A stretch of DNA of 32,000 bases from Nitrospira sp. bin75 (GTDB lineage Bacteria; Nitrospirota; Nitrospiria; Nitrospirales; UBA8639), in assembly GCA_002238765.1 (NCBI GenBank), contig MPMZ01000005.1, positions 1 through 32,000 on the forward strand, given 5' to 3'. Made by a program: the position numbers and the translations under genes. This document shows, one piece after another, positions 5,052-32,000 of this stretch. The notes beneath the pieces were generated by a model. The model was not told the origin of the DNA. It worked only from the letters and a program-made list of their open reading frames with translations, and searched no databases. The first letter of the stretch is position 1; each line of letters begins with the position of its first letter.

Positions 5052-5107
5052 GCGCTCTTCCTTTCCTCACTGCGTTCCAACGTGGCCAGATCCGAATGAT
5101 GGGGCGA

Positions 5108-6295: not shown

Positions 6296-6377
6296 GATTC
6301 TCCTCTCGAAGAAAAAGACTGACTCAGCGATCTCTTCTTACCAGAAAACCGATAGAACTCTACAAAACCACTTGAAG

Positions 6378-6502
6378 GCAGGATGTTCAAAAAAGCCGGC
6401 CAGCGCGGCCGCAGCAAGCGAGGAGGCGAGGCGTACGTTTGGAGTACGTTGAGCCTCCGAGCGCTGCGAGAACAAAGCTGGTGGGTTTTTTCAACATCCT
6501 GC
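6378..6502. repeat. long imperfect multi-tier inverted repeat (extended stem-loop) in the frdA-sucC intergenic region
   Basis: Outer arms gcaggatgttcaaaaaagccggccagc (6378-6404) and gctggtgggttttttcaacatcctgc (6477-6502). Middle tier 6411-6427 pairs with 6453-6467. Apical stem cgtac (6432-6436) / gtacg (6444-6448). The element starts 2 nt after the frdA-like stop codon. Confidence 0.7.
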
Positions 6503-6504
6503 TG

Positions 6505-8085: not shown

Positions 8086-8102
8086 GTGTCAGCCGCACTC
8101 CC

Positions 8103-8822: not shown

Positions 8823-8840
8823 GTCCGTTTACCGTACCCC

Positions 8841-8970
8841 GTTGTTCCCCTCACCCTACCCTCTCCCACAAGGGGAGAGGGTTCTCTCATCCCACTTCTT
8901 CTCTCCAGGCGGGAGAGAATTCCCTTCTCACTCCCTCTCCCTGGACGGGAGAGGGTTGGGGTGAGGGTGA
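8841..8970. repeat. GC-rich REP-like element, three tandem hairpin units inside an outer inverted repeat
   Basis: Hairpins ccctctccc/gggagaggg (8859-8881), ttctctcc/ggagagaa (8899-8919) and ccctctccc/gggagaggg (8934-8956). Outer arms are ccctcaccc (8848-8856) and gggtgaggg (8959-8967). The last unit is near-identical to 318-360. Confidence 0.75.
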
Positions 8971-8975
8971 AGAAA

Positions 8976-11225: not shown

Positions 11226-11296
11226 AAGACGTTCTCCGCATGGCTTCCCGGACCCGATCCTTTCCGTAGACCGGGTCAGGGAAACCGTCAATGTTG

Positions 11297-13123: not shown

Positions 13124-13174
13124 CGAACTCTCCTACGTATCAATATCAATATAAAAAGTCTCTCTCGATGGCTG

Positions 13175-15993: not shown

Positions 15994-16047
15994 ACTTAAA
16001 TGTAAGTGGGCTTATGGCATCGAGGTGATGCAGGGAGATCAAGTCCG

Positions 16048-18075
16048 ATGGCCGTGACGAAAGAGAGGTTGACGACCACAACGCTCAGTTTGCCCGAAGA
16101 GCTCATCCTGATGCTCCTCAACGAGGAGAACGGGTACTTTCACCAGGTCCCCGGCTGGGATTTGAACTGCGCTGTCGCCGGCGCAGTACTCGCGGAACTC
16201 TCCCTCCTGTCGCGCATCGACACGGACATGAATTCCCTGTTCCTCGTAGATCAGACCGAAACGGGCGACCCCGCCCTGGACCCCATTCTGAAAGAGATTG
16301 CAAGCGAATCGGTTCAACGGAGCACCCAATTCTGGATTGAACGGCTCGCCCCCCGTGCGGAGTCAGTCATTGATTTGACTCTGGATCGCCTGGTCGGCCA
16401 GAAGATCCTGGAATACCACGACGGCGAATTCTGGACGCTGAATCATACCGGCTGGCAGACGGAACTGTACGGCAACTCCCGGGAAAGCACTGCCGGGCAG
16501 TTCATCAAAACGCGGATCGGCAGGGCTATCTTCATGAACGAGATTCCCGATCCCAGAGACATTATCGTGATTTGCCTCGTCAATACGTGCGACGTCTTTC
16601 GCTTCATCTTCCAGCTCGATGAGGAGTCGGAAGAGCGCATCCAACTCATCTGCAAGATGGACGCGATCGGCCGGTCCATCGCCGATGCAGTCGCCCACAA
16701 CCTCGCCGGCCCCCTGCTTCGACATTCGGCCCTGACCAAGAAGATTCCGGCTGTCTCGCTGAGTAAAGTGTTGTTCAATCCACACGTTCGCAAAGTCAAC
16801 ATTCCGGCCCTCTTTGCGGACCTTGCACACGAATATGGACCGGTGTTTGCGATCCGCCTGCCGTTTGCGAAGCCTATGATCTTCCTGGCCGGACCCCGGA
16901 CAAATCGCTGGGCGCATAAGCGCGGGCGCATGTACCTGAGAGCCAAGGACTATCTTGCCGACTTCGAGAAAGTCTACGGCGCGTGCGGCGTCCTACCTTC
17001 CCTAGACGGCGCCGACCATTTCCGGCTTCGCAAGTCCATGTCAACGGCGTATTCCCGTAGAAGAGTTGAATTGCAACTGGACCAACTCTTTCATCTTGCC
17101 AGAACACATATGGCGCATTGGAAGGTTGGAGACTCGTATACCGCGAGGTCCATGTGCCGGCGAATGATCAACGCACAAATCTCGCCGTTCTACGTCAGCG
17201 TGGATTCTCAGGACATCATCGACGACCTGATGACGTACAAGGAACGGGCGCTCAAAACTCACATCTTGAAGAGCCTGCCCAAATTCATGCTGAACACGCC
17301 GGGCATGAAACGCCGGGCAAAAGCCGTGGACACGTTGCTGGAACGGATCCAGAGTGTCCACACGCCCGCCCAGCGCGCCGGTTGCCCGAGAGACCTTGCG
17401 GATGACTGGCTGAGCCTGCACGCGAGCGATCCGCAGTTCATGCCGGAGTCGAACCTGCGTTTCGCTCTCTCTGCAGCGCTGATTGCCAGCGTGTACCTCG
17501 GCGATGCCTTCAGTTTTGCGCTCTACGCCATGGCGTCACAGCCGGAGATCTACGCCAAGATCCGGAGTGAAGCCGATGCCCTGTTCGACAACGGCGATCC
17601 GAACGGCGAGAACTTCAACCCGTCCGCCATTGACGTCACGCACCGCTTCCTCATGGAATGCCTGCGCATGTACCCGATCGTCCCGATGTCTATTCGAACC
17701 GTGATGAACGCGTGCGTGGTCGAGGACTACGAATTGCCGGTCGGGACAAACATCTACATTGCCCAATCGGCCGCGCATTACATGGACGACGTCTTTCCCG
17801 ACCCGTTCACGTTCGATATCGACCGCTATCTTCCTGCGCGCAATGAGCACCTCAGTCCCGGGTACGCCCCGTACGGGCTGGGTACGCACACGTGTCTCGG
17901 CAACCGGCAGATGGACCTGAAATTGGCCGTCAACGTGCTAATGGTCGCGCATTACTTCACGATCGAGGTAGCCCCCGCGAACTACAAGCTCCGGTTCGAT
18001 CCTCTTCCGTCGATGAAACCGAGCAAGAAGCTGAATTTCCTCATCTCCGAGCGGAGGCGCGAGATTAGCGTCTAG
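16048..18075 (+). CDS. fusion protein: N-terminal GOLPH3/GPP34 (Vps74-like) domain and C-terminal cytochrome P450
   Basis: The N-terminal LSLPEELILMLLNEENGYF...LNCAVAGAVLAELSLLSRID is the GPP34-family signature. The C-terminal ~440 aa is a P450 with ExxR (ECLR), PDPFTFDIDRY, and heme loop YGLGTHTCLG (Cys codon 17893-17895). The start is taken at ATG 16048, preceded by GGGAGA (16034-16039); the ORF-track start is 16006. Confidence 0.85.
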   Translation: MAVTKERLTTTTLSLPEELILMLLNEENGYFHQVPGWDLNCAVAGAVLAELSLLSRIDTDMNSLFLVDQTETGDPALDPILKEIASESVQRSTQFWIERLAPRAESVIDLTLDRLVGQKILEYHDGEFWTLNHTGWQTELYGNSRESTAGQFIKTRIGRAIFMNEIPDPRDIIVICLVNTCDVFRFIFQLDEESEERIQLICKMDAIGRSIADAVAHNLAGPLLRHSALTKKIPAVSLSKVLFNPHVRKVNIPALFADLAHEYGPVFAIRLPFAKPMIFLAGPRTNRWAHKRGRMYLRAKDYLADFEKVYGACGVLPSLDGADHFRLRKSMSTAYSRRRVELQLDQLFHLARTHMAHWKVGDSYTARSMCRRMINAQISPFYVSVDSQDIIDDLMTYKERALKTHILKSLPKFMLNTPGMKRRAKAVDTLLERIQSVHTPAQRAGCPRDLADDWLSLHASDPQFMPESNLRFALSAALIASVYLGDAFSFALYAMASQPEIYAKIRSEADALFDNGDPNGENFNPSAIDVTHRFLMECLRMYPIVPMSIRTVMNACVVEDYELPVGTNIYIAQSAAHYMDDVFPDPFTFDIDRYLPARNEHLSPGYAPYGLGTHTCLGNRQMDLKLAVNVLMVAHYFTIEVAPANYKLRFDPLPSMKPSKKLNFLISERRREISV

Positions 18076-18111: not shown

Positions 18112-19146
18112 CTAAAGGGGTTTGCGAGCCAGGAAACAGTACAACGGCGTGAAGATCCCCGACTTGCCACCCGCGACGTAGGCGTCTGCGGTTCGATCCA
18201 GGAGACGGACGACTTCCGCGGAGCCCTTCGGAAAGAGCCGCAGCACCTCGGCCAGCTTCGATCCCGCGATACAACATCTGCGGCCCCATGGAAGCCTGCA
18301 CACGAGGTTACCCAGTGTCCCGTACCGCGTCTCCATGGGTTGATACCAGGGTGTGGACGGCCCCTCCTTGACGTCGCGGTCCTTCCCCTCGATGACCTGA
18401 AATCCCGCCGCTTCGAGCGCACGATTCACTTCCCCGAACGTCGCGATGTCCTTCAGCGCAATGCCACGCATAAGTTCCCGCTTGATGGCCCGGTGCCGGC
18501 TGTCGTTCGGATCGTACTTGTCCGTCAGACACATGTCCTGACCCCAGAACAGGGCTCCGGGTTTCAATACACGGAATATCTCCGCGAACGCGCGTGGCTT
18601 GTCCGGCGCATGGCACGTTGACTCGATGGCATAACCCCGGTCGAACGTCTCGTCTTTGATGGCGCTCATATCCATGAAGCTGCACGTCTCGTAATCGACC
18701 ATGTGGTCGAGCCCCGCCTCGGCGTTCAACCGTTTCGCATTTGCCAACTGGATGTGATTGATGTTGATCCCGACAACCCGGACACCGGCCTCACGGACGA
18801 CCCGGCGCATCGGGCCGCCGATCCCGCAACCGACATCGACCACCGTCATGCCGGGGTGCAACTCCAGCTTGGCGATCATCAACCGCTGGTGCCGGACTTT
18901 GGAATCCCCCAGACTCTCCTGAGGCGTGAGGGGTGCGAAGTGCAGGGATTCGCCCCAACCGTACACCATGAACTCGCTGCAAAGATCATAGTAGTCTTTT
19001 ACCGTTTGGGTGTGGTCGTATCCGTTCACGCCAGCAGCCTCCGGCGTCGCCCGGTCGATCCAGCCGTCGAAGTGCTCCACGCGACGGGTGACGTCCCCCT
19101 CCCGGTACGCTTCCTTGAGCGCGTGCAGAAGTTTGCCTAGTTGCAT
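18112..19146 (-). CDS. sterol C-24 methyltransferase family protein (ERG6/SMT-like), paralog 1
   Basis: 344-aa ORF with SMT region I variant YYDLCSEFMVYGWGESLHFAP, SAM motif VVDVGCGIGGP, IESTCHAPD, and the Sterol_MT_C-type end GGKSGIFTPLYCFLARKP. RBS GGAAGGAG lies before the ATG. Confidence 0.88.
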   Translation of the reverse strand: MQLGKLLHALKEAYREGDVTRRVEHFDGWIDRATPEAAGVNGYDHTQTVKDYYDLCSEFMVYGWGESLHFAPLTPQESLGDSKVRHQRLMIAKLELHPGMTVVDVGCGIGGPMRRVVREAGVRVVGININHIQLANAKRLNAEAGLDHMVDYETCSFMDMSAIKDETFDRGYAIESTCHAPDKPRAFAEIFRVLKPGALFWGQDMCLTDKYDPNDSRHRAIKRELMRGIALKDIATFGEVNRALEAAGFQVIEGKDRDVKEGPSTPWYQPMETRYGTLGNLVCRLPWGRRCCIAGSKLAEVLRLFPKGSAEVVRLLDRTADAYVAGGKSGIFTPLYCFLARKPL

Positions 19147-19238
19147 GATGAGATTTCTCCTTCCACTTTTGTGTCCACTGCGAAAACCGTGTCAGCAGTG
19201 GAGAGGACGGCGCCACCGGCGGCCTCGTCCATCGGCAC

Positions 19239-19577
19239 TCATTCCGAACCATCCGGATAGAATTGCCTGCAATACCGTCGATACGCGCCAATTTCCCCGT
19301 CCGAGCGACAGAGTAGCGGGCGGGGCCGATGCTGTTTTCGGCCCCAGATGACGACGTCCTGCAACACGTCCCGGCTCTGAGCCGCCATGATGATTTTGTT
19401 CATGAGCCTGGTGCGCAGGCGTAACGGCAGGAAGCGCATGCCCACGATCGGCCGCTTCGGTCTCAGGATTTGACGCACGTGGCTGACCAGCACCAGTTCG
19501 ACGAGTCTGCCGTCGATGGGCGTAGTCAGCACCCACAAACATGTGAAATCAGTCTCATGTCGTCTCCTCTCTGTCAA
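19239..19577 (-). CDS. possible small hypothetical protein between the regulatory module and SMT paralog 1 (start uncertain: TTG 19577 / TTG 19538 / GTG 19532 / ATG further in)
   Basis: It is the only frame in the 19147-19540 gap with protein-like composition and G/C-rich third positions (..PIDGRLVELVLVSHVRQILRPKRPIVGMRFLPLRLRTRLMNKIIMAAQSRDVLQDVVIW..). No family recognised and no clear RBS. Confidence 0.3.
   Translation of the reverse strand: MTERRRHETDFTCLWVLTTPIDGRLVELVLVSHVRQILRPKRPIVGMRFLPLRLRTRLMNKIIMAAQSRDVLQDVVIWGRKQHRPRPLLCRSDGEIGAYRRYCRQFYPDGSE
19526..19558 (-). other. candidate leader uORF, copy 1 (MRLISHVCGC*)
   Basis: The minus strand reads GAGAGGAGAcgacATG AGA CTG ATT TCA CAT GTT TGT GGG TGC TGA. 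The RBS, the ATG and the first six codons are conserved with the copy at 29284-29346. Confidence 0.3.
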
Positions 19578-19703
19578 CTCGTCCGCCTATTGTCTTCCCG
19601 GATCGTGTCCCGAGGCCTGGCGTAAAAGAGTTTTGCCCCACGCGCCTGCCAGCGGGCGGGTAGAAACATTCAGGATGCCACGGCAGATAATTTGAAACGC
19701 ACC

Positions 19704-19732
19704 ACTGTAGCCTACTGAAACCATGGAGTCTA
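19704..19732 (-). promoter_or_regulatory. candidate minus-strand promoter inside module copy 1
   Basis: On the minus strand TAGACT (19727-19732), a 17-nt spacer, then TACAGT (19704-19709). The same geometry occurs in copy 2 (TAGACT-17-TATAAT). Confidence 0.35.
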
Positions 19733-19867
19733 GTATTATGTGTTGCACTCCTATAATTTTATACTTGTCATTCCACAGGTGAAGAGACACCGACGAGGCA
19801 GGGGCTTCCGCCTCGTTGGAACATAAGGCCAAGGAGCTTGGACGTCATGCAGTGCAATAAATGATGC

Positions 19868-19896
19868 TTGCATATCTTGTTTGGCTCAGCTATAAT
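19868..19896 (+). promoter_or_regulatory. candidate plus-strand promoter for SMT paralog 2
   Basis: TTGCAT (19868-19873), a 17-nt spacer, then TATAAT (19891-19896), about 105 nt upstream of the GTG start at 20004. The -10 box is conserved in copy 2. Confidence 0.5.
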
Positions 19897-20003
19897 GTTA
19901 CTTCAGGATTTCTGTCCCGGCAACCCGAGTGTCACGGCCCTGCCCTCCCGAAAACGCGTGACAACGACCAGGACAAATCGTACGAATCCGGAAGAGTAAT
20001 CGA

Positions 20004-21035
20004 GTGAACCCTACGCCCGCCAAACAATCCAATTCTCGTTCCCTCGCGGATCTGGCCCCGGATGAAGTCAAATCCACGGTCGATGGATACACCGCGATCT
20101 ACGACGCCGGCCTGGAGAGCAGGAAAGAGCGTTATCAATCGCTCGTCAATCACTACTACGACTTGGTGACCGATTTTTTCGAATTCGGCTGGGGCCAGTC
20201 TTTTCACTTTGCCCCACGGCAACGAGGCGAGAGCTTCAAGGCGTCCCTGCTCAAGCACGAACAATTTCTCGCCGATCGGTTGTCCCTGAAACCGGGAATG
20301 CAGGTACTTGACGTGGGGTGCGGGGTAGGAGGTCCGATGGGTGCTCTGGCCCGCTATTCCGGGGCCAGCTTTGTCGGTATTAACAATAACGCCTACCAGA
20401 TCAAGCGCGCGAAACTGCACACACGGGATGTCGCATCGTTATGCCGCTTCATCTGCGGCGACTACATGCAGATTCCCGAAGGTGACGACCAGTACGATGC
20501 CGCCTTCGCCATCGAGTCAACGGCCCACGCACCGGACAAAACGGCGGCGTTCCGGGAGATCTTCCGCGTCCTGCGTCCGGGGGCCTGTTTCGCAGGCTAC
20601 GAATGGTGTCTCACCGATGAATACGATCCGGAGAACGCGAAGCACCTGAGGATCAAGAACGATATCATGGTGGGGGGTGGGTTACCGGATATCGCCGTCA
20701 CGTCAAAAATCTGCACCGCATTGCGCACGGCCGGATTCGAACTCCTGGAAGCCTGCGACCGCGCCCCCGAATCGGATCCGGAAATGCCCTGGTACCGCGC
20801 CTTGCAGGGTCGAGACCTCAGCATGGGGAGTATTCCGCGTACCCCTGTCGGCCGCGCCTTGACCAATTTGGTGTTACGGGTTGGGGAGAAATTGCGGCTG
20901 GTTCCGGAGGGCGCCCGCGAGGTCAGCACGCTGTTGAATGCAGGGGCGGACGCGCTGGTCGAAGGCGGCAAATCCGGAATTTTTACTCCGATGTTTTTTT
21001 TCCTGGCACGCAAACCCCGTCGCTCGGAAGACTGA
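20004..21035 (+). CDS. sterol C-24 methyltransferase family protein (ERG6/SMT-like), paralog 2
   Basis: 343-aa ORF with canonical SMT region I YYDLVTDFFEFGWGQSFHFAP, SAM motif VLDVGCGVGGP, IESTAHAPD, and C-terminal GGKSGIFTPMFFFLARKP. It uses a GTG start preceded by GGAAGAG. Confidence 0.9.
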   Translation: MNPTPAKQSNSRSLADLAPDEVKSTVDGYTAIYDAGLESRKERYQSLVNHYYDLVTDFFEFGWGQSFHFAPRQRGESFKASLLKHEQFLADRLSLKPGMQVLDVGCGVGGPMGALARYSGASFVGINNNAYQIKRAKLHTRDVASLCRFICGDYMQIPEGDDQYDAAFAIESTAHAPDKTAAFREIFRVLRPGACFAGYEWCLTDEYDPENAKHLRIKNDIMVGGGLPDIAVTSKICTALRTAGFELLEACDRAPESDPEMPWYRALQGRDLSMGSIPRTPVGRALTNLVLRVGEKLRLVPEGAREVSTLLNAGADALVEGGKSGIFTPMFFFLARKPRRSED

Positions 21036-21124: not shown

Positions 21125-24100
21125 TCAAGACAAAGAATAGGTGGGAACCGCTTCAGGCAAGGGCGCCGTCGCGTCGGCAGCAGAGACGGCGGAGGCGGTC
21201 AGTTCCAGCCGGGCCCGACGCCGCTGCTCGTAAAGACCGAGCGCGTGCAGGGGAAAATACTGCCGATACAGGACGTAGTCCAACAGCGCCGTACGGAAAA
21301 AGATCCCGGCCATGTCTTGTTTGGGCCATGTCCCATCCGCTTCCTGGGTGTCGAGCAAAAACCGGGCGCCCCGCGAAATCGCGGTCCAGTTCGAATCCCC
21401 CGCCTCGAGGAGCGCAAGCATGGCCCACGAAGTTTGGATGACCTGACTTTCCTCATGCGCGACGTAGCGGCCGGTCAGGCACCCGCTGTGGTGCTCACCC
21501 CATCCCCCGTCTTCCCGCTGGCGGTCCAGTAACCACCGGCAGGCCAGACGTAGGGCCGGATCACCGGGACGGGCCCCGGCGGCCAGCAGCCCCCTGACCC
21601 CGAAGAAGGTGCCGTAGATGAACTGAACGCCCCAGACGCCGCGCCACGACCCATCGCTGGCCTGGTTCCGGCGAAGCCAGGTGTCAGCCCGTGAGACGGC
21701 GCTCATCATCGCCCCATCCGTGATTTGCGGGAAGTGCTCCTGACAGGCGGCGAGCGCCGCGAGACAAGACGCGGTGCACTCGACGTAGGAATGTTCGGTC
21801 GTCGACTCGCCGAACATCTCGGCCGGATTCAGCCACTCAAGAGGAACCACGGAGCGTTGCGCCTCGTAGCTCCCAAAACCGCCATCGCGGTTCTGACCGC
21901 GCAACATGAACCGAACCGCTTCGTCGAGCATTGTCGTGCTCGTGGCCTCGCAGTCCGCGGCGATAATCCCAAGCACCGCTTCCGCGGTGCAGTCGGTCAC
22001 CGGCCAGCCGTGCCATCCCCCTGGAAAACACCAGCCGCCCTTGGGGTCGCTCCGATAGGCCTCGCGAAATCCTTCGAAGCTGGTACCGATTTGTTCCCGG
22101 CGCAGGAAATCGGCTCCGCGTTGGAGGGCGGTTCGAACCCCGTCGAACTCGGGCACCGTCGCCAGCGCCTGCAGGGCGAATCCGGTATCCCACGAGGAGC
22201 TTCTCGCTCCGGTCACTCGCGCTCCACACTCCTCGTCTTCCCAGATCCAGCCGTCCAGCTTCGCGAACGCCTGCCGGCAGTCTGAATCGTTTGGATCACG
22301 CAGCCATAACGCAAGAATGTTCAGGAAGCCGCTGACCGGAGAGATGCTCGTGTGGCTGGTGGTTTGCAGCTCCCATTTGATGTGCCGAATGATCGATTCC
22401 ATACATCGGGCGCGCAGACGTTTGCCGTGGAACCGCTCGACTACCCGCGCCAACCCATATCCGGCACGGAGCCACACGCTGGGTCGCGCGTACAGGTCGG
22501 CGCTTCGCAAGCGATTGCGGCCCGCGGAAAAATTCACGTTGGCAAACCCCTGGGGGAACAACTCCTCTCGTAACGACGCGATCGTGGGCGTGACGGGTGC
22601 TTGAAACCGATGCGGGTAAATCGCCGCCATCGCCATATAGATGAGCCGGGTATGGCAGTACCAATTCGAGGGGTGTAACACGATCCAGCGCGGCAAGATC
22701 CACAACTCCGGGAGAATGGCGTTGACCCCGCGCCAGTCGTAGAGATGGAGAAGCGCCAGCCAGAACTTCCCCCAACTCGGGATATTGAGAACCCCTTCTG
22801 CTTGCATGAATCGACGGGCCGGCTCGATTAACGGATCATCCCGTTCGATACCGAGTAATCTCGCCGCGACGTACACCAGGGTGGTGACAAACAGGTTGGG
22901 TGGTGAGTGCTCGTGTAAACCCCATACGCCTTCCCGGAGACGGGTCCGTTCGAAGGAGCGTAGCACACGCCGGCACCGGCCGGGATCGAGCGGCCGCTCC
23001 ATCATGTGGAGCAATAACACATATTGCGCGGTCAGCATGGGACACCACACCATCTCACCCTCCCAAGCGCCATCCTCACCCTGGAGACGTAACAGACGCG
23101 CGCACGCGCTCTTCAAGGCCGGTTCGGCATAGGGTGACGCAACTTCCCTCGGGCGGATGGACTGGGGGTTACTCACGCTCGACGGCATGGAGACCAATAG
23201 CGCACGAGCCAAGGTGTCCCGAATTCGCTCGTCTTGTGCTCCGCCCTCGCCTCTCGCCTTGCGCAGATGTATGACGCCACGCAGGAGCCACTGGAGACGA
23301 ACGGCGAGCGCCTGAACGACGTCGCAGGCCCTCCGCCAAGCGAACTGGTCGCAGGATCGCGGAATCGCCCCGGCAACCGCCCGAAACACCATCGCGCAAC
23401 CCGCGAAACTCATATGGGATACCGATATGTCTTCACAGGCGAGCAAACGCATGGTCTCGTTGCGGAACGCGGAACTTGCCCGCCAACGCCGGTAGATCGC
23501 GTGTCTGACTGCCACCACCTCGGCCCGGTGATCGGCAAAGGTCTCATAGAGCTCCATGGCAAGGAGCTCGGGAGTGTGGGTCGCTTGGAAACGCTTTGTG
23601 GTGAAGTCGTGAAAGTCCTTGCCTTCGGCCAGCGTCAGCGCATCGCCGAAACCCAGGGGCATTCCCACCGCCGTCAGGGGATGGTAGTGCCCGGCCGCAT
23701 CGCCGATCAGCACTCGATGGGGGCTCCCGTACGTGACGCGCGGACTCAGTTCATTGGCCGCGGCCTGGAATTGCCCCGCCCGTAGCGCTTCGATAAACGC
23801 AGGCCTGAGTGTTTCCGGCAACACACCGGCATACGCGTCCGACAGAAAGCCAATCCGGTCCCAGGGTGTCCAGCCGTCCGATGGGACATCGACGATGACC
23901 CGGACGCAATGATCTCCCAAACGGTACATGAGAATTGGACCCGGTCCACCACACAACACGTGCCCATAACCCTCCAGCGGTAAACGCACCCCTCTCAATG
24001 TGACCCCCACCATCCGCGAGCAGGTCTTCGGTTTGATCGATAAGCCCAAGGATCGACGCACGATTGAGGCCCGGCCGTCGGCGCCGACAATCCGCGCGGC

Positions 24101-24550
24101 GGATAGGGATTTCTCTGTACCGTTGCAGGAAAACGTGACGCGCGCGTCTTCCACTGAACGGACCCACGCGTGGGGAATAAAGTCGACACCCGGTTCGCTC
24201 TCGATCGCTTCACGCAGATTCGAGACGATCGCCGCATGCTCGCACGCCAAACCGTGAAGTCCCTCCGGATAAGGGAGCACGATCGGCTCCGAGCCGTCTT
24301 CCGGGAACACGACAAATCCCTTACCGGTGGTGCTGAGGGGCTGCGTATCGAGCCTGATGCCGAAATCGCGTAACATCCGCACGGCAAGCGGATGCAGCCA
24401 TTCGCCCGCCATTCGTTTGGAAGCATTGGGATTGGCTTCGAGCAGAGCCACCCTGGCGCCGTTCCGCGCGTGAGCGAGCGCGCACAAGCTGCCTGCCGGA
24501 CCCGCGCCGACGATGGCAACGTCGTAGCGCCGAACAGTGGCGTCACTCAT
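21125..24550 (-). CDS. single-ORF fusion of squalene monooxygenase (epoxidase, N-terminal ~470 aa) and oxidosqualene cyclase (C-terminal ~650 aa)
   Basis: N-terminal YDVAIVGAGPAGS (FAD) and GDAAGHYHPLTAVGMPLGFGDA (squalene-epoxidase motif). The C-terminal part has QW-type repeats (GEDGAWEGE, RDGGFG, SDGSWRG, EDGGWGEH, ADGTWP) and the epoxide-protonating VTDCTAE motif (21980-22015). No in-frame stop lies between the domains. I place the start at ATG 24548-24550, which overlaps the cyp51 stop as ATGA; the ORF-track start 24787 adds 79 non-homologous residues. Confidence 0.88.
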   Translation of the reverse strand: MSDATVRRYDVAIVGAGPAGSLCALAHARNGARVALLEANPNASKRMAGEWLHPLAVRMLRDFGIRLDTQPLSTTGKGFVVFPEDGSEPIVLPYPEGLHGLACEHAAIVSNLREAIESEPGVDFIPHAWVRSVEDARVTFSCNGTEKSLSAARIVGADGRASIVRRSLGLSIKPKTCSRMVGVTLRGVRLPLEGYGHVLCGGPGPILMYRLGDHCVRVIVDVPSDGWTPWDRIGFLSDAYAGVLPETLRPAFIEALRAGQFQAAANELSPRVTYGSPHRVLIGDAAGHYHPLTAVGMPLGFGDALTLAEGKDFHDFTTKRFQATHTPELLAMELYETFADHRAEVVAVRHAIYRRWRASSAFRNETMRLLACEDISVSHMSFAGCAMVFRAVAGAIPRSCDQFAWRRACDVVQALAVRLQWLLRGVIHLRKARGEGGAQDERIRDTLARALLVSMPSSVSNPQSIRPREVASPYAEPALKSACARLLRLQGEDGAWEGEMVWCPMLTAQYVLLLHMMERPLDPGRCRRVLRSFERTRLREGVWGLHEHSPPNLFVTTLVYVAARLLGIERDDPLIEPARRFMQAEGVLNIPSWGKFWLALLHLYDWRGVNAILPELWILPRWIVLHPSNWYCHTRLIYMAMAAIYPHRFQAPVTPTIASLREELFPQGFANVNFSAGRNRLRSADLYARPSVWLRAGYGLARVVERFHGKRLRARCMESIIRHIKWELQTTSHTSISPVSGFLNILALWLRDPNDSDCRQAFAKLDGWIWEDEECGARVTGARSSSWDTGFALQALATVPEFDGVRTALQRGADFLRREQIGTSFEGFREAYRSDPKGGWCFPGGWHGWPVTDCTAEAVLGIIAADCEATSTTMLDEAVRFMLRGQNRDGGFGSYEAQRSVVPLEWLNPAEMFGESTTEHSYVECTASCLAALAACQEHFPQITDGAMMSAVSRADTWLRRNQASDGSWRGVWGVQFIYGTFFGVRGLLAAGARPGDPALRLACRWLLDRQREDGGWGEHHSGCLTGRYVAHEESQVIQTSWAMLALLEAGDSNWTAISRGARFLLDTQEADGTWPKQDMAGIFFRTALLDYVLYRQYFPLHALGLYEQRRRARLELTASAVSAADATAPLPEAVPTYSLS

Positions 24551-25956
24551 TGGACAATGCTCGCTTGCGAGCGGCGGCGATAGCGGACCCGGCACGGTGC
24601 CTTGGGACCCGTCACCCAACTCCCGTAATTCGGGGCGGGAAACGCCGTGTCGAGATGAAAATCGAAGCGATCGAGCAGCACGGTCCAGATCGCTTTCAGT
24701 TGCAGGTAAGCAAAAAGTTTCCCCATACACACGTGTTTGCCGCCGCCGAAACCGATCAGGGCGTACTGATGTTGCTTGTCCTCGCAAGCGGGAGGGTCAA
24801 AACGCTCCGGAGAGAACCGTTCCGGGTCGGCAAACACGTGGGGCAGCCGGTGAGAGACTGCAGGGGACACCATGGCCAGGGTGCCGGCAGGCACGAGATG
24901 GTCTCCGTAACGCACGGGTTTCAGCACCTTGCGGATCAGCATGATCAACGGCGGGTGCATCCGCTCACACTCACGGACGGCGTGTTCCAGCGCCACTTGT
25001 CGTTTGAGACTAGCAAGGGTCATGGCTCCTTCCTCACGGTAAACGTCTTGCATCTCGTCTCTGACCCGCGCCAGGTATGATGGTGCCCTCACGAGTTCCA
25101 GACCGGTCCAGGTTGCGAGCACCGCGCTGGTGTGTTGGCCCGCGAACAAGACCGTCAGCAAGATCCCAGAAATTTCGTCGTCGCTCAAAGCACGGCCATC
25201 CTTGTACCGGGCGTGCATGAGTGCCTGCATGAAATCATCGGGACAGGCCCCGGAAAACCGGCGTTCCGCCATGATCCGGCTAAAGAGTTCGACCACGTTT
25301 CGCCGGGCCCGGTCGCGGCTTCGATGCGCCGCGGTCGGAAGTCTGGGGAGAAAAAATCCCAAGGTGTTGATGCCTTTTTGCAGATCGTGATACGCCTCGG
25401 CAAAACCCGAGTCCACCTGATCCCGGACTTCCTGTCCAATGAGGCAACGACTGGCGATCTTGACGGTGAGTTCGTTCAACGCGACCGGCAGATCGGCTTC
25501 ACCCTCCTCGCCGAGGGCGTCGGCGAACCAGCTCGTCTCCTCGAACATGATGCGCGCAAACCTGCTCATCGCGGCCTCGCGGAGCGCCGGAAACAAGAAT
25601 CCCAGTTGCTCGTCCATGAGTTCGGGGGGGGCATCGTACGCCACGCCGCGTCCGAAGATGGGTACCGTGAATTGATAGACGGCTTTGGCGTTCAGTTGAT
25701 CCTCGGGCGCCCTGAAGTAAACTTCGTGGGCTTCGGGTCCGGTGAAGAGAACAAACTCTCGGGGACCGAGCCGGAACCGGAAGAGATCGCCCTGCTCGCG
25801 CCAGCCGCGGCTCAACATCGAGACCGGATCCTTGAGAAAATCCGGCAGATGACCGATCAACGGCCATCCACCCCCAAGCTCGGGAACGGCTTTTGCGACG
25901 CGCGGCGAGAACTGCGCCGAACGCAGGGTTGCCACACTGTGAGACCGATCTTCCAC
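24547..25956 (-). CDS. cyp51: sterol 14-alpha-demethylase, cytochrome P450 family 51
   Basis: CYP51 signatures: B'-helix YQFTVPIFGRGVAYDAP, I-helix LFAGQHTSAV, and heme loop FGGGKHVCMG. The preferred start is GTG 25954-25956, with GGAGAG 8 nt upstream overlapping the preceding gene's TGA. The alternative ATG at 26022 would overlap the upstream gene by 55 nt. Confidence 0.9.
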   Translation of the reverse strand: MEDRSHSVATLRSAQFSPRVAKAVPELGGGWPLIGHLPDFLKDPVSMLSRGWREQGDLFRFRLGPREFVLFTGPEAHEVYFRAPEDQLNAKAVYQFTVPIFGRGVAYDAPPELMDEQLGFLFPALREAAMSRFARIMFEETSWFADALGEEGEADLPVALNELTVKIASRCLIGQEVRDQVDSGFAEAYHDLQKGINTLGFFLPRLPTAAHRSRDRARRNVVELFSRIMAERRFSGACPDDFMQALMHARYKDGRALSDDEISGILLTVLFAGQHTSAVLATWTGLELVRAPSYLARVRDEMQDVYREEGAMTLASLKRQVALEHAVRECERMHPPLIMLIRKVLKPVRYGDHLVPAGTLAMVSPAVSHRLPHVFADPERFSPERFDPPACEDKQHQYALIGFGGGKHVCMGKLFAYLQLKAIWTVLLDRFDFHLDTAFPAPNYGSWVTGPKAPCRVRYRRRSQASIVQ

Positions 25957-25967
25957 CCCTGCTCTCC

Positions 25968-27062
25968 TCAATAGACAAACGGCAGCATCGAAAAGCGCAC
26001 TCGCTGCGTGTAGCGTTCCCACAATTCGCCATACTTGGCTCGGCAGCGGTGCTCATCACGTCTCGAGCGATGCCACAACAAACCCGCCAGCCACACGGGT
26101 AACAGGTAGGGTACCCAGGATGCGAATCCGGTGGTCAGGGTGAACGCGAGGTAGATGCAGATTTCACCGGTATAGTTGAGATGCCGTCCAATGCCCCAAA
26201 AGCCGGAGACCAGCAGGCGCCCGTCCATGGACCGGGCGGGTTGTCCCCAAATCATGATGTCGGGGTCACGCTTGAAGCGGTGCTTTTGCTGGTTGGCGCC
26301 GCGGAAGACCCAGAAGCCGAACAACAGGACGATCGCAGCCGCGGCAATGGGAGACAGCGGTGCCGATGCGTGGATCAGCCACCAGCCGGGGAGGCAGTAG
26401 AAAAACGGCACCAGCACGTAGTCTCCCCAAATCAACATCCATCCGAAGCGCTCACTGACGATGTCCCAAGTGTGGATCATGCCGTATTCGAACTGGAAGT
26501 AATTGAGCACGTACAGGAAGGTGAAGATCTGATAGAGCGCCATGGCCAAGGTCAGCCCGCCGTAGGTTTCGTACTGCGCGACGGCAAACGAGGCGTTGAG
26601 CAGCGCCAGGCCGATGAGGGAAGGGCGGTAACTGAAAAGCTTCAAATCCACCCCGAACCAGGTGGGATTGAGTTCCACGCCAAAGAAGAAACCTTTCCAC
26701 GGTCCCGGTGGTGCATCCCCCAACTCGGCTCTTCGCCAATACAGCCAGCCGGACAAGGCGAATGCGAATACGTTGGTCACCACGAACAACGCGGCGAAGT
26801 GGGTATGCAGCACGGAAAGAGAAAACCACCCGAAGACCTCGGCGAGACAGGCCACGATCACGGTCATCAGGAACAAGGCAAGGCCGTTGAGCTTGTAGGT
26901 GTGCGTTTTTCCGCCGATCTCCGGCCCCGTCACCCGCCGTCCGGACAGGAACGCCGAACCCAGAAACAACACGCCGACAAACACCGACACCATGACCGTC
27001 GCATCGAGCACCGTGCCGGCCGACAGCGTGGACAACGGGAAGTGCAGCTCAGACGCCGGCAT
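25968..27062 (-). CDS. ERG4/ERG24-family sterol reductase (most likely C-14 reductase; C-24(28) or C-7 reductase not excluded)
   Basis: 364-aa polytopic membrane ORF with family motifs GANQQKHRFK, GFWGIGRHLNYTGE and HRSRRDEHRCRAKYGELWERY. It lies immediately upstream of cyp51. Confidence 0.85.
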   Translation of the reverse strand: MPASELHFPLSTLSAGTVLDATVMVSVFVGVLFLGSAFLSGRRVTGPEIGGKTHTYKLNGLALFLMTVIVACLAEVFGWFSLSVLHTHFAALFVVTNVFAFALSGWLYWRRAELGDAPPGPWKGFFFGVELNPTWFGVDLKLFSYRPSLIGLALLNASFAVAQYETYGGLTLAMALYQIFTFLYVLNYFQFEYGMIHTWDIVSERFGWMLIWGDYVLVPFFYCLPGWWLIHASAPLSPIAAAAIVLLFGFWVFRGANQQKHRFKRDPDIMIWGQPARSMDGRLLVSGFWGIGRHLNYTGEICIYLAFTLTTGFASWVPYLLPVWLAGLLWHRSRRDEHRCRAKYGELWERYTQRVRFSMLPFVY

Positions 27063-28176
27063 CGCCGTTCTCCGTCCCCCGCACCATGTACTCCCGCCAC
27101 TTGCGCACGGTCACGTTTTGAAAAGCCCGCACCGCCGGATTGTACTCGATGGGGGGAGCGTCCCAATGTTGCTCGTAACCCTGCTGCTCCGCTTCGACCG
27201 CAACGCCGTCCTGGGCGAGTAAAGGGCCGATGAGTACACGGTTCGAGATCTTCAACACCGCGGTCATGGCGAAACGGGGAATACGAACAGGCAGCAAGGG
27301 CACCTTCAGCGACTTGAAGTAAAACAGGAAAAACGCCCGGGTAGTACGCTCATCGATCGGCAGGACGAAAAGCCAGTGTTTGATCGCGTCATCGGTGTTC
27401 GACCACTGGTAGGGGTATTGATAGCACAGTTCCATATGAGTGGTATCGAGCCGGTGGTGATCGACAAACAGTCCGGAGATGCGCCCGCGCCCGACCCGCG
27501 TATCGTAGGCCACGTGCACGTCGTCGCCGACGGTCTCGCAACGGGTGAGAGTGGCGTCTTCTTCGAAGGGACGGTATTGACGGTGCAGGTGGGCGTGGGT
27601 GAAGTCGCTCACGTTATCGATCACCATCGAGTGGTGGGCCGACCAGGTGAAAACCAGCGGCTCGCAGGCCCACCGCTCGGGTCCCTCGAGTTCCGGGATG
27701 TCCGGGATCCGGCGCAACTCCGCCCGCTCCGGTTCCCCGGGGAACAACCAGACCAGACCGTATCGGACCTTCACGGGATAGGTTCTGAGCGGGAGCTTCG
27801 GGAGACCCCGTCCGGAGAGGTCGTGGGGGATCGCGACACAGCGTCCGTTTCCATCATACTGCCAGCCATGGTAGGCGCACACGAGCCGGCAGCCTTGCAC
27901 CTCGCCCAGGGAGAGTTTGAGCTGGCGATGCGCACAGCGATTCTCGATAGCGTGAAACGAGCCGTCCTTTCCCCGGAACAGCGCAATGGAACGTTTCCAG
28001 AAAATGACCTCGACCACCGTCCCCGGTTTGACGCGGTGCACTTCCTCAACCGCGTACCAATAATCCGGGTCCATCCCCGCGGCACGGGCTTGCTGGCGCA
28101 AGCTGCCGGCTTCCTCGAAGCCGGGTGGCGCACCCGGCGCCGGAATCACGTTGAGCCTTCTTTTCGCGTTATCCAT
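27049..28176 (-). CDS. sdmA: Rieske [2Fe-2S] non-heme-iron oxygenase, SdmA-like (bacterial sterol C-4 methyl oxidase candidate)
   Basis: Rieske motif CAHRQLKLS..(x)..CAYHGW and a mononuclear-iron region DNVSDFTHAHLH. It is paired with an SDR gene as in the Methylococcus capsulatus sdmAB arrangement. The symbol is assigned by context and family, not by a search. Confidence 0.7.
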   Translation of the reverse strand: MDNAKRRLNVIPAPGAPPGFEEAGSLRQQARAAGMDPDYWYAVEEVHRVKPGTVVEVIFWKRSIALFRGKDGSFHAIENRCAHRQLKLSLGEVQGCRLVCAYHGWQYDGNGRCVAIPHDLSGRGLPKLPLRTYPVKVRYGLVWLFPGEPERAELRRIPDIPELEGPERWACEPLVFTWSAHHSMVIDNVSDFTHAHLHRQYRPFEEDATLTRCETVGDDVHVAYDTRVGRGRISGLFVDHHRLDTTHMELCYQYPYQWSNTDDAIKHWLFVLPIDERTTRAFFLFYFKSLKVPLLPVRIPRFAMTAVLKISNRVLIGPLLAQDGVAVEAEQQGYEQHWDAPPIEYNPAVRAFQNVTVRKWREYMVRGTENGDAGV

Positions 28177-29287
28177 AGGCCTGGCTCGGAGAAAAATTGT
28201 CCACGGGTGCCGCGGCGGTCACGCACGGACGTTTCGCGAGCGGATTCGTGATCGCGTTGCGATGGTAGTGAAAGGCGTAAGCCTCACGAACCGCAGCACG
28301 GATACTGGTTGGCTGATAGCCGAGTTCCCGTTTCGCTTTGCTAGTGTCGGCGTGACGGCGCTTTCGTAACAGGCGGATGGCGCCGGGGGTGAACCGCTGG
28401 GGAAAGCTCGGGTGAAACCGGCTCAGATAAAAGCTCGCCACTTCCGAAAAGCCGAGCATCAGGCGGGTCGGAATCCGCCGGCACGGTCGCGGGAGTCCCG
28501 AGACTTCCTCGAACAGATCCAAGATCTCGGAGATGGTTTTGTACTCGCTGCTGAAGATGTACTTTTCGCCCGATCGTCCTTTGTGCATACACAACAGGTG
28601 TCCTTCGACAATGTCCCTCGCCGCGACAAACTCGAACCCCCCGTCGACGTAGGCGCGGATCTTGCGGTTGGTGTAGTCGCACAAGGTCCGTCCCAATCGC
28701 GAGGGGAAAAAATCACCGCCCCCGATCACCGCACAACACGTGGCGACCACGACGTCCTGTCCCTTCGCCGCGGCCTTCCAGCACTCGTGCTCGACGAGCG
28801 CTTTGCTGCGCTCGTAGGGCATCGTGCGCTCCATGGGATAGAACTGCATCGTCTCGTCGCTGGGAGAGGACGGATTATCCAGATCGTACCCGACCGCACT
28901 GAAAGAGCCCGTCACCACCACCCGGCCGGCCCCCGCCTCCCGCGCAGCCTGCAGCACGTGGCGGGTACCGAGCACGTTGCACTCGAACACTTCCCGCCGA
29001 TGGGCGCGGTTGCCTTCGATGGTCGAGACCTTGGCCGCGACGTGATAGACGCCTTGACAGCCTTCGAGCGCGCGCCTGGTGGCATTCAAGTCTCGAATGT
29101 CACCGAACGAGCGTTCAACATCAAGGCCTTCCAACGCCTCGTTGTTGTCCTCGTGTCTCAGCAACACCCGGACCCGGACGCCATCGTCGAGCAGCCGGCG
29201 CACAAGATTGGCGCCCACGTGCCCGGCCGATCCGGTAACGAAAACAGGCGGCGGAGAACCGGCGAATGCGCCCGATCCTGAGGTCAT
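28169..29287 (-). CDS. sdmB: NAD(P)-dependent SDR (3-beta-HSD / epimerase family), SdmB-like (C-4 decarboxylase/ketoreductase candidate)
   Basis: Rossmann VFVTGSAGHVGANLVRRLL and catalytic YERSK (YxxxK). It overlaps the sdmA-like start by 8 nt and is the first gene of the five-gene unit. RBS GGAAGGA lies before the ATG. Confidence 0.7.
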   Translation of the reverse strand: MTSGSGAFAGSPPPVFVTGSAGHVGANLVRRLLDDGVRVRVLLRHEDNNEALEGLDVERSFGDIRDLNATRRALEGCQGVYHVAAKVSTIEGNRAHRREVFECNVLGTRHVLQAAREAGAGRVVVTGSFSAVGYDLDNPSSPSDETMQFYPMERTMPYERSKALVEHECWKAAAKGQDVVVATCCAVIGGGDFFPSRLGRTLCDYTNRKIRAYVDGGFEFVAARDIVEGHLLCMHKGRSGEKYIFSSEYKTISEILDLFEEVSGLPRPCRRIPTRLMLGFSEVASFYLSRFHPSFPQRFTPGAIRLLRKRRHADTSKAKRELGYQPTSIRAAVREAYAFHYHRNAITNPLAKRPCVTAAAPVDNFSPSQAYG

Positions 29288-29842: not shown

Positions 29843-32000
29843 ATGAGCTCCGCCACTCTGGACCGCTACACCGCGTTCATGTTGCGCCGCCGATGGCTGG
29901 TCCTCGCGTCGGCCGTGGCAGTCATGCTGGCTCTGACGGCCGGCGTCCAATTCATCAACATCTCCAACGACTGGCGTGACATGTTGGACGAGGACAATCC
30001 TCAACTCGTGGCATTCGACGCCTTGGAGGATACCTACACGGCCACCAATGCGGCGCTGGTCGCGGTCGCGCCCAAGGGCGGGTCGGTCTTCACCCGCGAG
30101 GCGCTCGGCGCCGTCGAGGAGTTGACCGAGGCCGCGTGGCGCGTGCCCTCGTCCACCCGGGTCGACTCCTTGACCAACTATAGCCACACCGAGTCGGTCG
30201 AGGACGATTTGAACGTCGAACGGCTCGTGGACGACGCGGGATCGCTGAGCGATGACGACCTCGCGCGGATCAAGGAAATTGCGTTAAACGAGCCCAGTGT
30301 CGCGGGCCGTCTCGTTTCCCACGACGGGCGCGTTGCCGGACTGGTCATCAGTTTCACCTTGCCCGAGCATTCGGACGCCGCGGAGATCCGGATTCTCAAC
30401 TATGTCCGCGGCCTCCTGGAAGAGGCCAGGGCGGCGCATCCGGACATCGCCTATCACGTCACCGGCAATGTCTTCGTGAACCGAGTCCTGACGAAGGCGG
30501 CCCAGGACGATATGGGAATTCTCGCGCCCGTCGCGTTCCTCGTCATCGTGTCCGTCGCCGCCATTCTGCTGCGCTCCCTGTTCGGCACGCTGTCCCTCGT
30601 CGCGGTGCTCCTTTTCGTCGTCGGCTCGACCATGGGCGTCATCGGCTGGACCGGTTTGGTGCTCAACGCCGCCAACTCCGGCGTTCCCCTCATCATCATG
30701 ACGCTCGCCATCGCGCACTCGGTCCACGTCGTCGAGAAGATCGTGTCCGGCATGAGCCGGGGTCTGGATAGGGACACGGCGGTCGTCGAATCGTTGCGCG
30801 ACAATGCCTGGCCGGTCTTCCTGACGACGGCCACGACGATGATCGGGTTCCTCAGCATGAACGCCTCGGACTCTCCGCCCTTCCGGGTCCTCGGTAATCT
30901 TGTGGCGTTCGGGATGTTCTGCGCCTACGTGTATTCCATGACGCTTCTTCCGGCGCTGCTGTTGGTCCTGCCGTTGCGCGCGAGTCCCGTACGCGCCGGG
31001 CGTTCCAATTTCTTCGATCGCCTCGGCGCCTTCGTCGTCGCGCGCCGCGGGCTCCTGCTCTGGTCCATGGCCGCCGTCGCGATTACCCTGATAGCCGGCG
31101 TGCCCCGCGTCGAGCTGACGGACAACTGGACGACGCATTTGGATGAACGTTACGAGTTTCGGCGCGATACGGACTTCGTCATCGAGAACCTGTCCGGCGT
31201 AGAGACGCTGGAGTACAGCCTGAGAGCCGGACGCGAAGGCGGCATCACCGATCCCGGCTATCTGCGCAAGGCCGACGCTTTGGCCGAATGGTACCGGGCC
31301 CAGCCGGAAGTGGCTCACGTCCGGGCGTTTTCAGACATCATGAAGCGCCTCAACAAGAACATGCACGGCGACGACCAGGCCTTTTACCGGCTGCCCGAAA
31401 ACCCCGAGCTTGCCGCGCAGTACCTGCTGCTCTACGAACTTTCGGTTCCCTTCGGCATGGACCTCAACAACCGAATGGACATCGGCAAAACCTCGACGCG
31501 GATGACCGTCACGCTCCACAGACTGAAGTCCGAGGAGATGCGTGAGCTCGAAGTGCGCGGGCAGGAGTGGCTCCGCGCCAACGCGCCCGACCTCGCGTCC
31601 GAGGCATCGGGGTACAGCCTCATCTTCGCCCATCTGGCCATACGGAACACCATGAGCATGTTGTGGGGCACGATCACGGGTATGGTCCTCATTTCGCTGC
31701 TCCTGATCGCGATTTTCAGAAGCGTACGCCTCGGCCTCATCAGCCTCGTGCCCAACCTCATCCCCTCGTTTATGGCTTTCGGCGTTTGGGGCTATCTGTA
31801 CAGCGAGGTGGGGCCCGCCGGCTCGCTCGTGACCGCGATCGCCTTCGGCACCGTCGTCGATGACACGATTCACCTCATGAGCAAGTATCTGAAGGCGCGT
31901 CGCGAAGGACTTTCCGCGTCCGAGGCGGTATGCTACGCTTTTCGTTCGGTCGGTCAGGCGTTGTTCACCACAACCATGATGCTGGTGCTGGGCTTCCTGG
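29843..32000 (+). CDS. RND-superfamily MMPL/HpnN-type transporter (BstA-like sterol transporter candidate), C-terminus beyond window
   Basis: Own translation from ATG 29843 gives MSSATLDRYTAFMLRRRWLVLASAVAVMLALTAG..., then a periplasmic loop, a TM bundle (..LIIMTLAIAHSVHVV.., ..TTATTMIGFLSMN..), a second loop, and a second bundle with FGTVVDDTIHLMSKY. The frame is open to 32000. It is absent from the ORF track because it is open-ended. Confidence 0.85.
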   Translation, partial: MSSATLDRYTAFMLRRRWLVLASAVAVMLALTAGVQFINISNDWRDMLDEDNPQLVAFDALEDTYTATNAALVAVAPKGGSVFTREALGAVEELTEAAWRVPSSTRVDSLTNYSHTESVEDDLNVERLVDDAGSLSDDDLARIKEIALNEPSVAGRLVSHDGRVAGLVISFTLPEHSDAAEIRILNYVRGLLEEARAAHPDIAYHVTGNVFVNRVLTKAAQDDMGILAPVAFLVIVSVAAILLRSLFGTLSLVAVLLFVVGSTMGVIGWTGLVLNAANSGVPLIIMTLAIAHSVHVVEKIVSGMSRGLDRDTAVVESLRDNAWPVFLTTATTMIGFLSMNASDSPPFRVLGNLVAFGMFCAYVYSMTLLPALLLVLPLRASPVRAGRSNFFDRLGAFVVARRGLLLWSMAAVAITLIAGVPRVELTDNWTTHLDERYEFRRDTDFVIENLSGVETLEYSLRAGREGGITDPGYLRKADALAEWYRAQPEVAHVRAFSDIMKRLNKNMHGDDQAFYRLPENPELAAQYLLLYELSVPFGMDLNNRMDIGKTSTRMTVTLHRLKSEEMRELEVRGQEWLRANAPDLASEASGYSLIFAHLAIRNTMSMLWGTITGMVLISLLLIAIFRSVRLGLISLVPNLIPSFMAFGVWGYLYSEVGPAGSLVTAIAFGTVVDDTIHLMSKYLKARREGLSASEAVCYAFRSVGQALFTTTMMLVLGFL

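Follow-up and report, generated by a model that had tools for sequence, protein, structure and literature searches.

Distinct sterol methyltransferase (SMT) paralogs perform the two side-chain methylation steps in plants and some protists. One methylation is carried out by yeast ERG6, one or two by the plant enzymes SMT1 and SMT2. In contrast, a bacterial SMT has been described that carries out three. It is one of two SMTs encoded by the Aplysina aerophoba metagenome scaffold JGIcombinedJ30088_10000835, both assayed by Brown et al. 2023 (Nat Commun, PMC10070321): "1 of 2", also named Ap_sym_SMT, and "2 of 2". The window, i.e. the whole stretch of DNA analysed here, comprises 32,000 nucleotides from Nitrospira sp. 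bin75 (assembly GCA_002238765.1, contig MPMZ01000005.1, positions 1 to 32,000). It carries two SMT-family genes, referred to as A (paralog 1) and B (paralog 2), which very probably are the pair assayed by Brown et al. and belong to a sponge-associated (Aplysina aerophoba-type) Nitrospira sterol cluster. B is the enzyme that performs three methylations. A is, we infer, a methyltransferase acting on a different substrate, most likely an oxygenated or otherwise modified sterol. The two genes are as follows.

18112..19146, minus strand: A, SMT family, ATG start, 344 amino acids; corresponds to "...10000835 2 of 2".
20004..21035, plus strand: B, S-adenosylmethionine (SAM)-dependent sterol C-24/C-28 methyltransferase, GTG start, 343 amino acids; corresponds to "...10000835 1 of 2" (Ap_sym_SMT).

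An initial annotation had placed two divergent SMT open reading frames (ORFs) at 18112-21035. Both were found at exactly these coordinates and are transcribed divergently, with 857 bp between them; all the SMT motifs quoted in that annotation were recovered. The paralogs had been described as different along their whole length, with no identity computed: the value is 45% over 304 amino acids (BLASTP, E 1e-87). The gene identities are firm. Pfam Sterol_MT_C (PF08498) scores 61.3 bits for A and 80.2 bits for B (cut-off 21.7), and class-I methyltransferase models of Pfam match both proteins (Methyltransf_11/25 for B). None of the NCBIfam models reached its cut-off for A or B. The fold, the reaction class (SAM-dependent methylation of a side-chain olefin), Regions I-IV and Sterol_MT_C are shared by A and B with ERG6 and plant SMT1/SMT2. 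A carries the motifs MVYGWGESLHFAP, AIESTCHAPD and GGKSGIFTPLYCFLARKP; B carries FEFGWGQSFHFAP, AIESTAHAPD and GGKSGIFTPMFFFLARKP.

Pocket positions are given in yeast ERG6 numbering; position 249 of A was set by MAFFT and a numbering check (Ile229). The ERG6 sequence used passed 28 of 28 residue-number checks against the preprint of Brown & Welander 2025 (bioRxiv 10.64898/2025.12.19.695621). In B, the SAM core (Region II, D-x-G-x-G-x-x-G-P) reads LDVGCGVGGP and keeps D125, G127, G129 and P133; Region I ([YF]E[YF]GWGxSFHF) reads FEFGWGQSFHF; Region III keeps E195 (AIESTAHAPD). The key pocket residues of B are F59 and F61 (yeast 81 and 83) and G225 (yeast 249). Region I of B had been annotated as canonical. 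The motif is there but not fully canonical: its F81 is rare, occurring in only 2 of the 120 closest homologs, where Y81 is usual. A keeps the SAM core (VDVGCGIGGP) and E195 (AIESTCHAPD). Its Region I, correctly annotated as a variant, is M60-V61-Y62-GWGES-L68-HF, with M81, V82, L89 and S78 instead of Y/F81, E82, F89 and T78, and position 249 is I229.

The paralog pair is not new: these exact proteins are already in the literature and have already been assayed. Supplementary Data 1 of Brown et al. 2023 lists gene 9 (SMT), gene 11 (SMT), gene 12 (fused squalene monooxygenase (SMO)/oxidosqualene cyclase (OSC)), gene 13 (ERG11), gene 14 (ERG24), gene 15 (sdmA) and gene 16 (sdmB). The window has the same order, SMT, small ORF, SMT, SMO/OSC, ERG11, ERG24, sdmA, sdmB, as JGI genes 9-16 of scaffold 10000835. 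A is 35.159% identical to ERG6 (published gene 9: 35.16%) and B 42.99% (published gene 11: 42.36%). The exact B protein is listed in MetaClust as 891.fasta_scaffold00835_9. The codon-optimised gene of "1 of 2" is printed in the preprint; its exact 5-mers, taken over three reading frames of a text damaged by optical character recognition (OCR), cover 316 of the 343 residues of B and 30 of the 344 residues of A. A tblastn value of 56% identity between B and the printed gene is misleading, as it results from OCR frameshifts, and is superseded by the 5-mer coverage. The context of the G225D primer in the preprint, MVG[D]GLP, agrees with M222-V-G-G225-G-L-P of B. B and Ap_sym_SMT have the same N- and C-termini, the same G225 and the same cluster context, with no difference detectable outside the OCR-damaged stretches. 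For A, the preprint alignment row of "2 of 2", DRATPEAAGVNGYDHTQTVKDYYDL, corresponds to residues 31-55 and agrees, as does the ERG6 identity. The exact JGI scaffold 10000835 was not among the matches of the metagenome scan; the identity with this scaffold therefore rests on the protein-level matches and on the MetaClust identifier.

B is the published tested protein: its chemistry is taken from the literature and its analysis in the window from the sequence. In vitro, "1 of 2" converts desmosterol to a 24-methyl and 24-methylenecholesterol to a 24-ethyl product, and then forms 24S-24-isopropylcholesta-5,25-dienol (Brown et al. 2023; Brown & Welander 2025); the published intermediates are 24-methyl(ene) and 24-ethyl(idene) sterols. 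Ap_sym_SMT alone performs all three methylations, giving C28, C29 and C30 24-isopropyl sterols as analysed by gas chromatography-mass spectrometry; the main route to the 24-isopropyl product passes through isofucosterol, and the products were confirmed by 13C nuclear magnetic resonance (Brown et al. 2023). These published assays back, as enzymatic capacity, the proposal of the initial annotation that the organism may build C28-C30 side chains. In the mutant G249D (G225D), C30 production is lost and C29 production is retained; in a related enzyme, Phe at 81/83 increases the C30 yield (Brown & Welander 2025).

The propylating signature of Brown & Welander 2025 is Gly249, Phe at 81 and/or 83 and 25 residues conserved in functional SMTs. 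B has G249, F81 and F83, and all the conserved positions checked are present. A has I249, M81, L89 and S78 and lacks the signature. The 120 nearest homologs of B (76-99% identity; metagenome-assembled genomes (MAGs) of Nitrospira, Defluviicoccus, Rhodospirillaceae and Deltaproteobacteria) have Y81 in 118 cases and F83 in 119; at position 249, 76 have D, 32 have N, 8 have T and 4 have G. F81, F83 and G249 are found together only in B of the window and its 99% twin. This rare combination sets B apart within a common bacterial SMT clade and fits the unusual range of its products. B, adjoining the fused epoxidase-cyclase gene, is very probably the working side-chain alkylase: it attacks the delta-24 bond, then methylates its own olefinic products again, and a roomy pocket (F81, F83 and Gly at yeast position 249) probably permits the repeated methylation.

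The inactivity of A on two substrates is likewise shown by published assays. "2 of 2" heads the "No activity" block in Suppl. Fig. 1 of the preprint (desmosterol, 24-methylenecholesterol). The position of this label is imprecise (OCR); 11 SMTs have to fit into the block, 7 of which deviate from the conserved residues, and the count works only with "2 of 2" included. F89 and T78 are conserved in all functional SMTs (Brown & Welander 2025), and L89 and S78 of A agree with the reading of "2 of 2" as a member of this group. Other A-type SMTs of the "No activity" group are Petrosia LXNJ01004423, Theonella Chromatiales 2 of 2 and Nitrospira coral 2 of 2 (Brown & Welander 2025). In the literature, "2 of 2" and the other A-type SMTs are non-functional or poor candidates; here they are found to form a strongly conserved, selected clade that is specific to symbionts of sponges and corals and has its own neighbourhood.

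The A clade was analysed with 120 homologs (76-100% identity). D125, G127, G129, P133, H90, W85, E195, G217 and W286 are each invariant (120/120). In the pocket, M81 and L89 are found in 120/120, V or I at position 82 in 120/120, I249 in 119/120 and C362 in 119/120; W or Y occupies position 83 in 117/120, and S78 is found in 98/120. A is 35% identical to ERG6 and has M81, V82, L89 and I249 where ERG6 and plant SMTs have Y, E, F and D. In docking, residues 81 and 249 come to lie no more than 5 Å from the side chain of the sterol (Brown & Welander 2025). No true SMT structure was found in the PDB. Pairwise ratios of nonsynonymous to synonymous divergence (dN/dS) are 0.07-0.28 for A and 0.20-0.24 for B. 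By its low dN/dS and its intact SAM-binding and catalytic motifs, the A clade is not decaying; the invariance of its deviations across the clade argues for specialisation, not drift. In a representative library of 1.84 billion proteins, only a handful are close to A and share the Region I signature M-x-[FWY]-GW-x-ES-L-HFAP; all others have the canonical [YF]E[YF]GWG. A midpoint-rooted neighbour-joining tree, which is indicative only, splits the A group (12 leaves) from all other sequences, B and ERG6 among them. Judged from these comparisons, A is not a recent sister of B: it belongs to a clade of its own, which is divergent and has a conserved set of neighbouring genes.

Two features of the window belong to this neighbourhood.

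16006..18075, plus strand: fusion of GPP34 (GOLPH3-like) and cytochrome P450 ("GPP34_L"; Pfam GPP34 and p450), convergent with A.
19242..19538, minus strand, inside the ORF 19239..19577: remnant of a KshA-like Rieske oxygenase, codons 272-370 of 370.

Relatives of A were found in at least 551 stretches of species-representative genomes; neighbours were counted within ±10 kb in the best 80 of these (75-98% identity to A).

GPP34-P450 ortholog (at least 50% identity): 61 of 80 loci; at most 400 bp from A in 55; in 42, directly upstream of A on the same strand (median gap 48 bp).
Full-length KshA-like Rieske oxygenase: 66 of 80 loci; together with GPP34-P450 in 51.
AcrB-type resistance-nodulation-division (RND) pump: 38 of 80 loci; median identity about 85%; for example L029:4718-7912, with its adaptor L029:3519-4721.
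Amine-oxidase-type flavoprotein: 33 of 80 loci; median identity about 80%; for example L012:6307-7665 and L055:13718-15094.

Examples of the GPP34-P450 ortholog are L012:11155-13188 and L029:7944-9962. The gap between GPP34-P450 and the A-type SMT is often 15-50 bp. In the window, neither the RND pump nor the flavoprotein is found near A. Among the 80 loci, those with B and the OSC core no more than 10 kb from A all belong to Nitrospirales, apart from one.

The best 80 loci span at least 12 phyla. Carriers are MAGs of Nitrospirales, Dehalococcoidia/Chloroflexota, Gemmatimonadota, Latescibacterota, Nitrospinota, Binatia, Rhodothermales, Thermodesulfobacteriota, Actinomycetes, Opitutales, Acidobacteria, and Alpha- and Gammaproteobacteria. 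Many of the isolate labels among them denote sponge or coral bin series. The synonymous divergence (dS) between A of the window and its orthologs in other phyla is 0.44-0.67, which argues for recent horizontal gene transfer (HGT) of A. In the metagenome collection, the prefix MKWU probably denotes an A. aerophoba assembly. All 75 matches in this collection have contig prefixes of sponge metagenomes, either MKWU or those assigned by Brown et al. to A. aerophoba, P. ficiformis or S. foetidus. The A ortholog of the coral-reef Nitrospira contig of Brown et al. 2023 (L013) is 89% identical to A.

Two side observations concern these loci. In the closest relatives (L009-L011, L017 and L021, Nitrospirales, with A 88-98% identical), the P450 beside A is about 43-46% identical to GPP34-P450 of the window, pointing to two or more GPP34-P450 subfamilies or to replacement of the gene at this site. 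Some genomes have, no more than 10 kb from the A-type gene, extra SMT-like genes (47-52% identity to B) whose Region I is canonical (YEYGWG); from their sequences, these may form a third SMT clade of sponge symbionts. They are located as follows.

L018:1443-2357 and 2521-3435: extra SMT-like genes, tandem pair.
L036:3896-4870: extra SMT-like gene.
L039:3425-4336: extra SMT-like gene.
L046:15114-16088: extra SMT-like gene.
L069:2835-3740: extra SMT-like gene.

The spacer between A and B is not empty, as it contains the 99-codon Rieske remnant. An intact Rieske gene lies upstream of the A-type SMT in relatives (for example L012:8796-9908, Rieske and KshA_C). The full-length L012 ortholog matches the window (tblastn) only over residues 272-370, with 89% identity; the remnant has Pfam KshA_C in a 112-amino-acid ORF, and the Rieske domain is gone. 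The flavoprotein gene (L012:6307-7665) and the outer membrane protein gene (L012:7854-8759) that lie between the two SMTs in relatives are missing from the window. The Rieske stump and these missing genes point to a module that has been rearranged or eroded in this lineage, with A and GPP34-P450 kept intact. The P450 domain of the fusion is closest in the PDB to CYP51/CYP120, weakly (E about 1e-17), and the Rieske protein is closest to KshA. Both comparisons are compatible with steroid-like substrates, short of proof.

The fusion of GPP34 and P450 has been reported as exclusive to sponge symbionts of many phyla, and GPP34_L has been proposed to modulate host phagocytosis through binding of phosphatidylinositol 4-phosphate (PMC11706023, Microbiome 2025). 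The fusion of the window has the same architecture and likewise occurs in a sponge-symbiont lineage. What sets it apart from the published description is that its neighbours are an SMT-family gene and a KshA-like oxygenase, a setting that points to a role in lipid modification; the main text of PMC11706023 contains neither "sterol" nor "methyltransferase". A search of a limited literature library found nothing on GPP34-P450 in a bacterial sterol context and no report that ties either GPP34-P450 or the Rieske gene to the inactive SMTs, which is absence of evidence only.

These observations are brought together in the following reading, which is put forward tentatively and at somewhat less than an even chance: A is a working methyltransferase of new specificity, and it belongs to a mobile module of sponge and coral symbionts that makes or remodels an oxygenated, unusually alkylated sterol. 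The proposed members, held with the same reserve, are A, GPP34_L, the KshA-like Rieske oxygenase and, often, the RND exporter and the amine-oxidase-type flavoprotein. Very probably, A is a divergent SMT-family methyltransferase still under selection, with a rebuilt sterol pocket, and not a relay partner of B. Its substrate would be made by, or passed to, the GPP34-P450 fusion and the KshA-like oxygenase, whose genes accompany A in a module that moves horizontally between symbionts of sponges and corals. Functional coupling of A to the neighbouring oxygenases is probable.

Several points weigh against this proposal. The linkage of A to the P450 and KshA genes is frequent and not obligate: at metagenome loci (4-kb flanks, more divergent orthologs), P450 is found in 23 of 51 and KshA in 16 of 51. 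The KshA partner has been lost in the window while A is intact, which argues against strict dependence. The tree carries no bootstrap support. "No activity" refers to assays in E. coli lysates with two substrates; an earlier intermediate (lanosterol, zymosterol or a 4-methyl sterol) might still be methylated at C-24 by A. The published data on sterol products of these bacteria are from in vitro work. The text of Brown et al. 2023 states that 8 of 10 sponge-symbiont SMTs methylated desmosterol. The 2025 figure places three of these ten under "No activity", i.e. 7 of 10 against 8 of 10 in 2023; one symbiont SMT was apparently reclassified between 2023 and 2025 (figure read through OCR).

The alternative that survives best, although unlikely, is a relay in the style of SMT1 and SMT2, in which one paralog performs the first methylation at C-24 and the other the later ones at C-28, together giving C28-C30 side chains. 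Such a division of labour, implied by the initial annotation, is consistent with the presence of two SMT-family genes in one cluster and with the use of distinct paralogs for each step in plants and some protists; A, tried on two substrates, might also prefer an early intermediate, as SMT1 prefers cycloartenol. However, B performs the three steps alone in vitro, and neither the first-step nor the second-step substrate was converted by A or by any of three other A-type enzymes. The complementary step specificity of a plant-type relay is not observed. Outside Nitrospirales, the A orthologs usually adjoin GPP34-P450 and KshA-like genes and not B or the OSC core, and A falls outside the tree group that holds B and ERG6.

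A second alternative keeps A on the sterol side chain and gives it another regiochemistry, for example that of the long-sought C-26 (delta-25) SMT, acting on the delta-25 products of B. The substrates would be (epi)codisterol, epiclerosterol and 24-isopropyl-5,25-dienol. Both statements are regarded as improbable. Petrosterol reportedly derives also from C-26 alkylation, according to the sponge-sterol work of Djerassi. The residues of A nearest the side chain (M81, I249, L89) are unlike those of all C-24 SMTs, and B and other bacterial SMTs yield delta-25 sterols, which Brown et al. named as substrates of hypothetical 26-SMTs. A literature search for bacterial 26-SMTs turned up none that has been characterised. 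Against this alternative, symbionts of Ircinia, Sarcotragus, Theonella and a coral have A-type genes just as commonly; to our knowledge, these hosts are not known for 26-methyl sterols. Nor would a C-26 SMT account for the conservation of the P450 and Rieske partners.

Very improbable is the view that A is a dead or decaying duplicate (pseudoenzyme) and that only B matters. The published assays without activity, the deviation of A at F89 and T78, conserved in all functional SMTs, and the pseudogene remnant of the adjacent Rieske gene in the window would agree with decay. However, the dN/dS of A is like that of B; A is full length in at least 551 genome stretches and at least 12 phyla; its SAM-binding and acid/base residues are 100% conserved and its deviations clade-invariant; and the operon-like spacing to the P450 gene is kept. 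The P450 and Rieske genes might finally be taken as marks of steroid catabolism (CYP125/KshA-like), a less likely reading that is not adopted, as an SMT has no place there and the P450 is closer to CYP51/CYP120.

The specialised methyltransferase proposed for A would stand beside a sterol cluster, in which B is accompanied by the following genes.

21125..24787, minus strand: fused squalene monooxygenase and oxidosqualene cyclase; longest ORF 1220 amino acids, 1141 amino acids according to gene callers.
24547..26022, minus strand: CYP51 sterol 14-alpha-demethylase (CYP51 matches in the PDB, E 1e-100; Pfam p450).
25968..27062, minus strand: sterol reductase of the ERG4/ERG24 family, C-14 reductase-like (Pfam ERG4_ERG24, 237 bits).
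27049..28176, minus strand: SdmA-like Rieske 4-methylsterol monooxygenase, C-4 demethylation (NCBIfam NF052579, 410 bits; Pfam Rieske and VanA_C).
28169..29287, minus strand: SdmB-like NAD-dependent component of sterol C-4 demethylase (NCBIfam NF052578, 316 bits).
29843..32000, plus strand: transporter of the MMPL/RND superfamily (Pfam MMPL, 114 bits; Patched and Sterol-sensing weak); runs past the end of the window.

The fused protein has Pfam SE, FAD_binding_3 and SQHop_cyclase_N/C and NCBIfam osq_cycl (720 bits). The same fusion was reported by Brown et al. 2023, where ERG1 and ERG7 match a single gene, gene 12. The scores of SdmA (410 bits) and SdmB (316 bits) are under the equivalog cut-off of 600, hence the names SdmA/B-like. 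OSC with squalene epoxidase, CYP51, C-14 reductase and SdmA/SdmB-like proteins are thus co-located, as expected of a bacterial cluster for de novo sterol synthesis. The MMPL transporter, directly after sdmB, could from its sequence and position be a sterol exporter; a gene is also placed at the transporter position in L001 by a gene caller. Symbionts of Ircinia have an ERG24-CYP51-OSC core, with HGT across about ten phyla and enrichment in SMT (Kelly et al. 2022, PMC9531527). The cluster of the window shares this core; PMC9531527 does not separate SMT clades and does not include a module of A-type SMT, GPP34-P450 and Rieske oxygenase.

The other features of the window are given below.

2306-3373, minus strand: NERD domain gene, in a region (2001-4000) with 45-48% GC against 57-64% elsewhere, which may be a small foreign island.
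4179-14371, minus strand: reverse tricarboxylic acid (TCA) block: succinyl-CoA synthetase alpha/beta, fumarate-reductase-like flavoprotein and Fe-S subunit, aconitase, ATP-citrate lyase alpha/beta; consistent with an autotrophic Nitrospira and syntenic with the SMT A module in Nitrospirales relatives.
30284-31318, strand opposite to the transporter: 344-amino-acid ORF with no family match, probably spurious.

The oldest chemical evidence put forward for animals is 24-isopropylcholestane. The locus of the window is one of three bacterial enzyme sources that complicate this use, as already published. The remaining interest lies in the A clade: hundreds of sponge-symbiont genomes from many phyla carry it, selection maintains it, none of the published assays found it active, and it stands beside the enigmatic GPP34-P450. 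If the proposed reading of A is true, GPP34_L would be reassigned from a presumed effector of phagocytosis to a lipid-modifying enzyme, and the A module could supply a missing reaction of sponge sterols, such as C-26 methylation. If the module modifies sterols, it would bear on which of the sponge "biomarker" sterols are microbial and on how symbionts persist in sponges.

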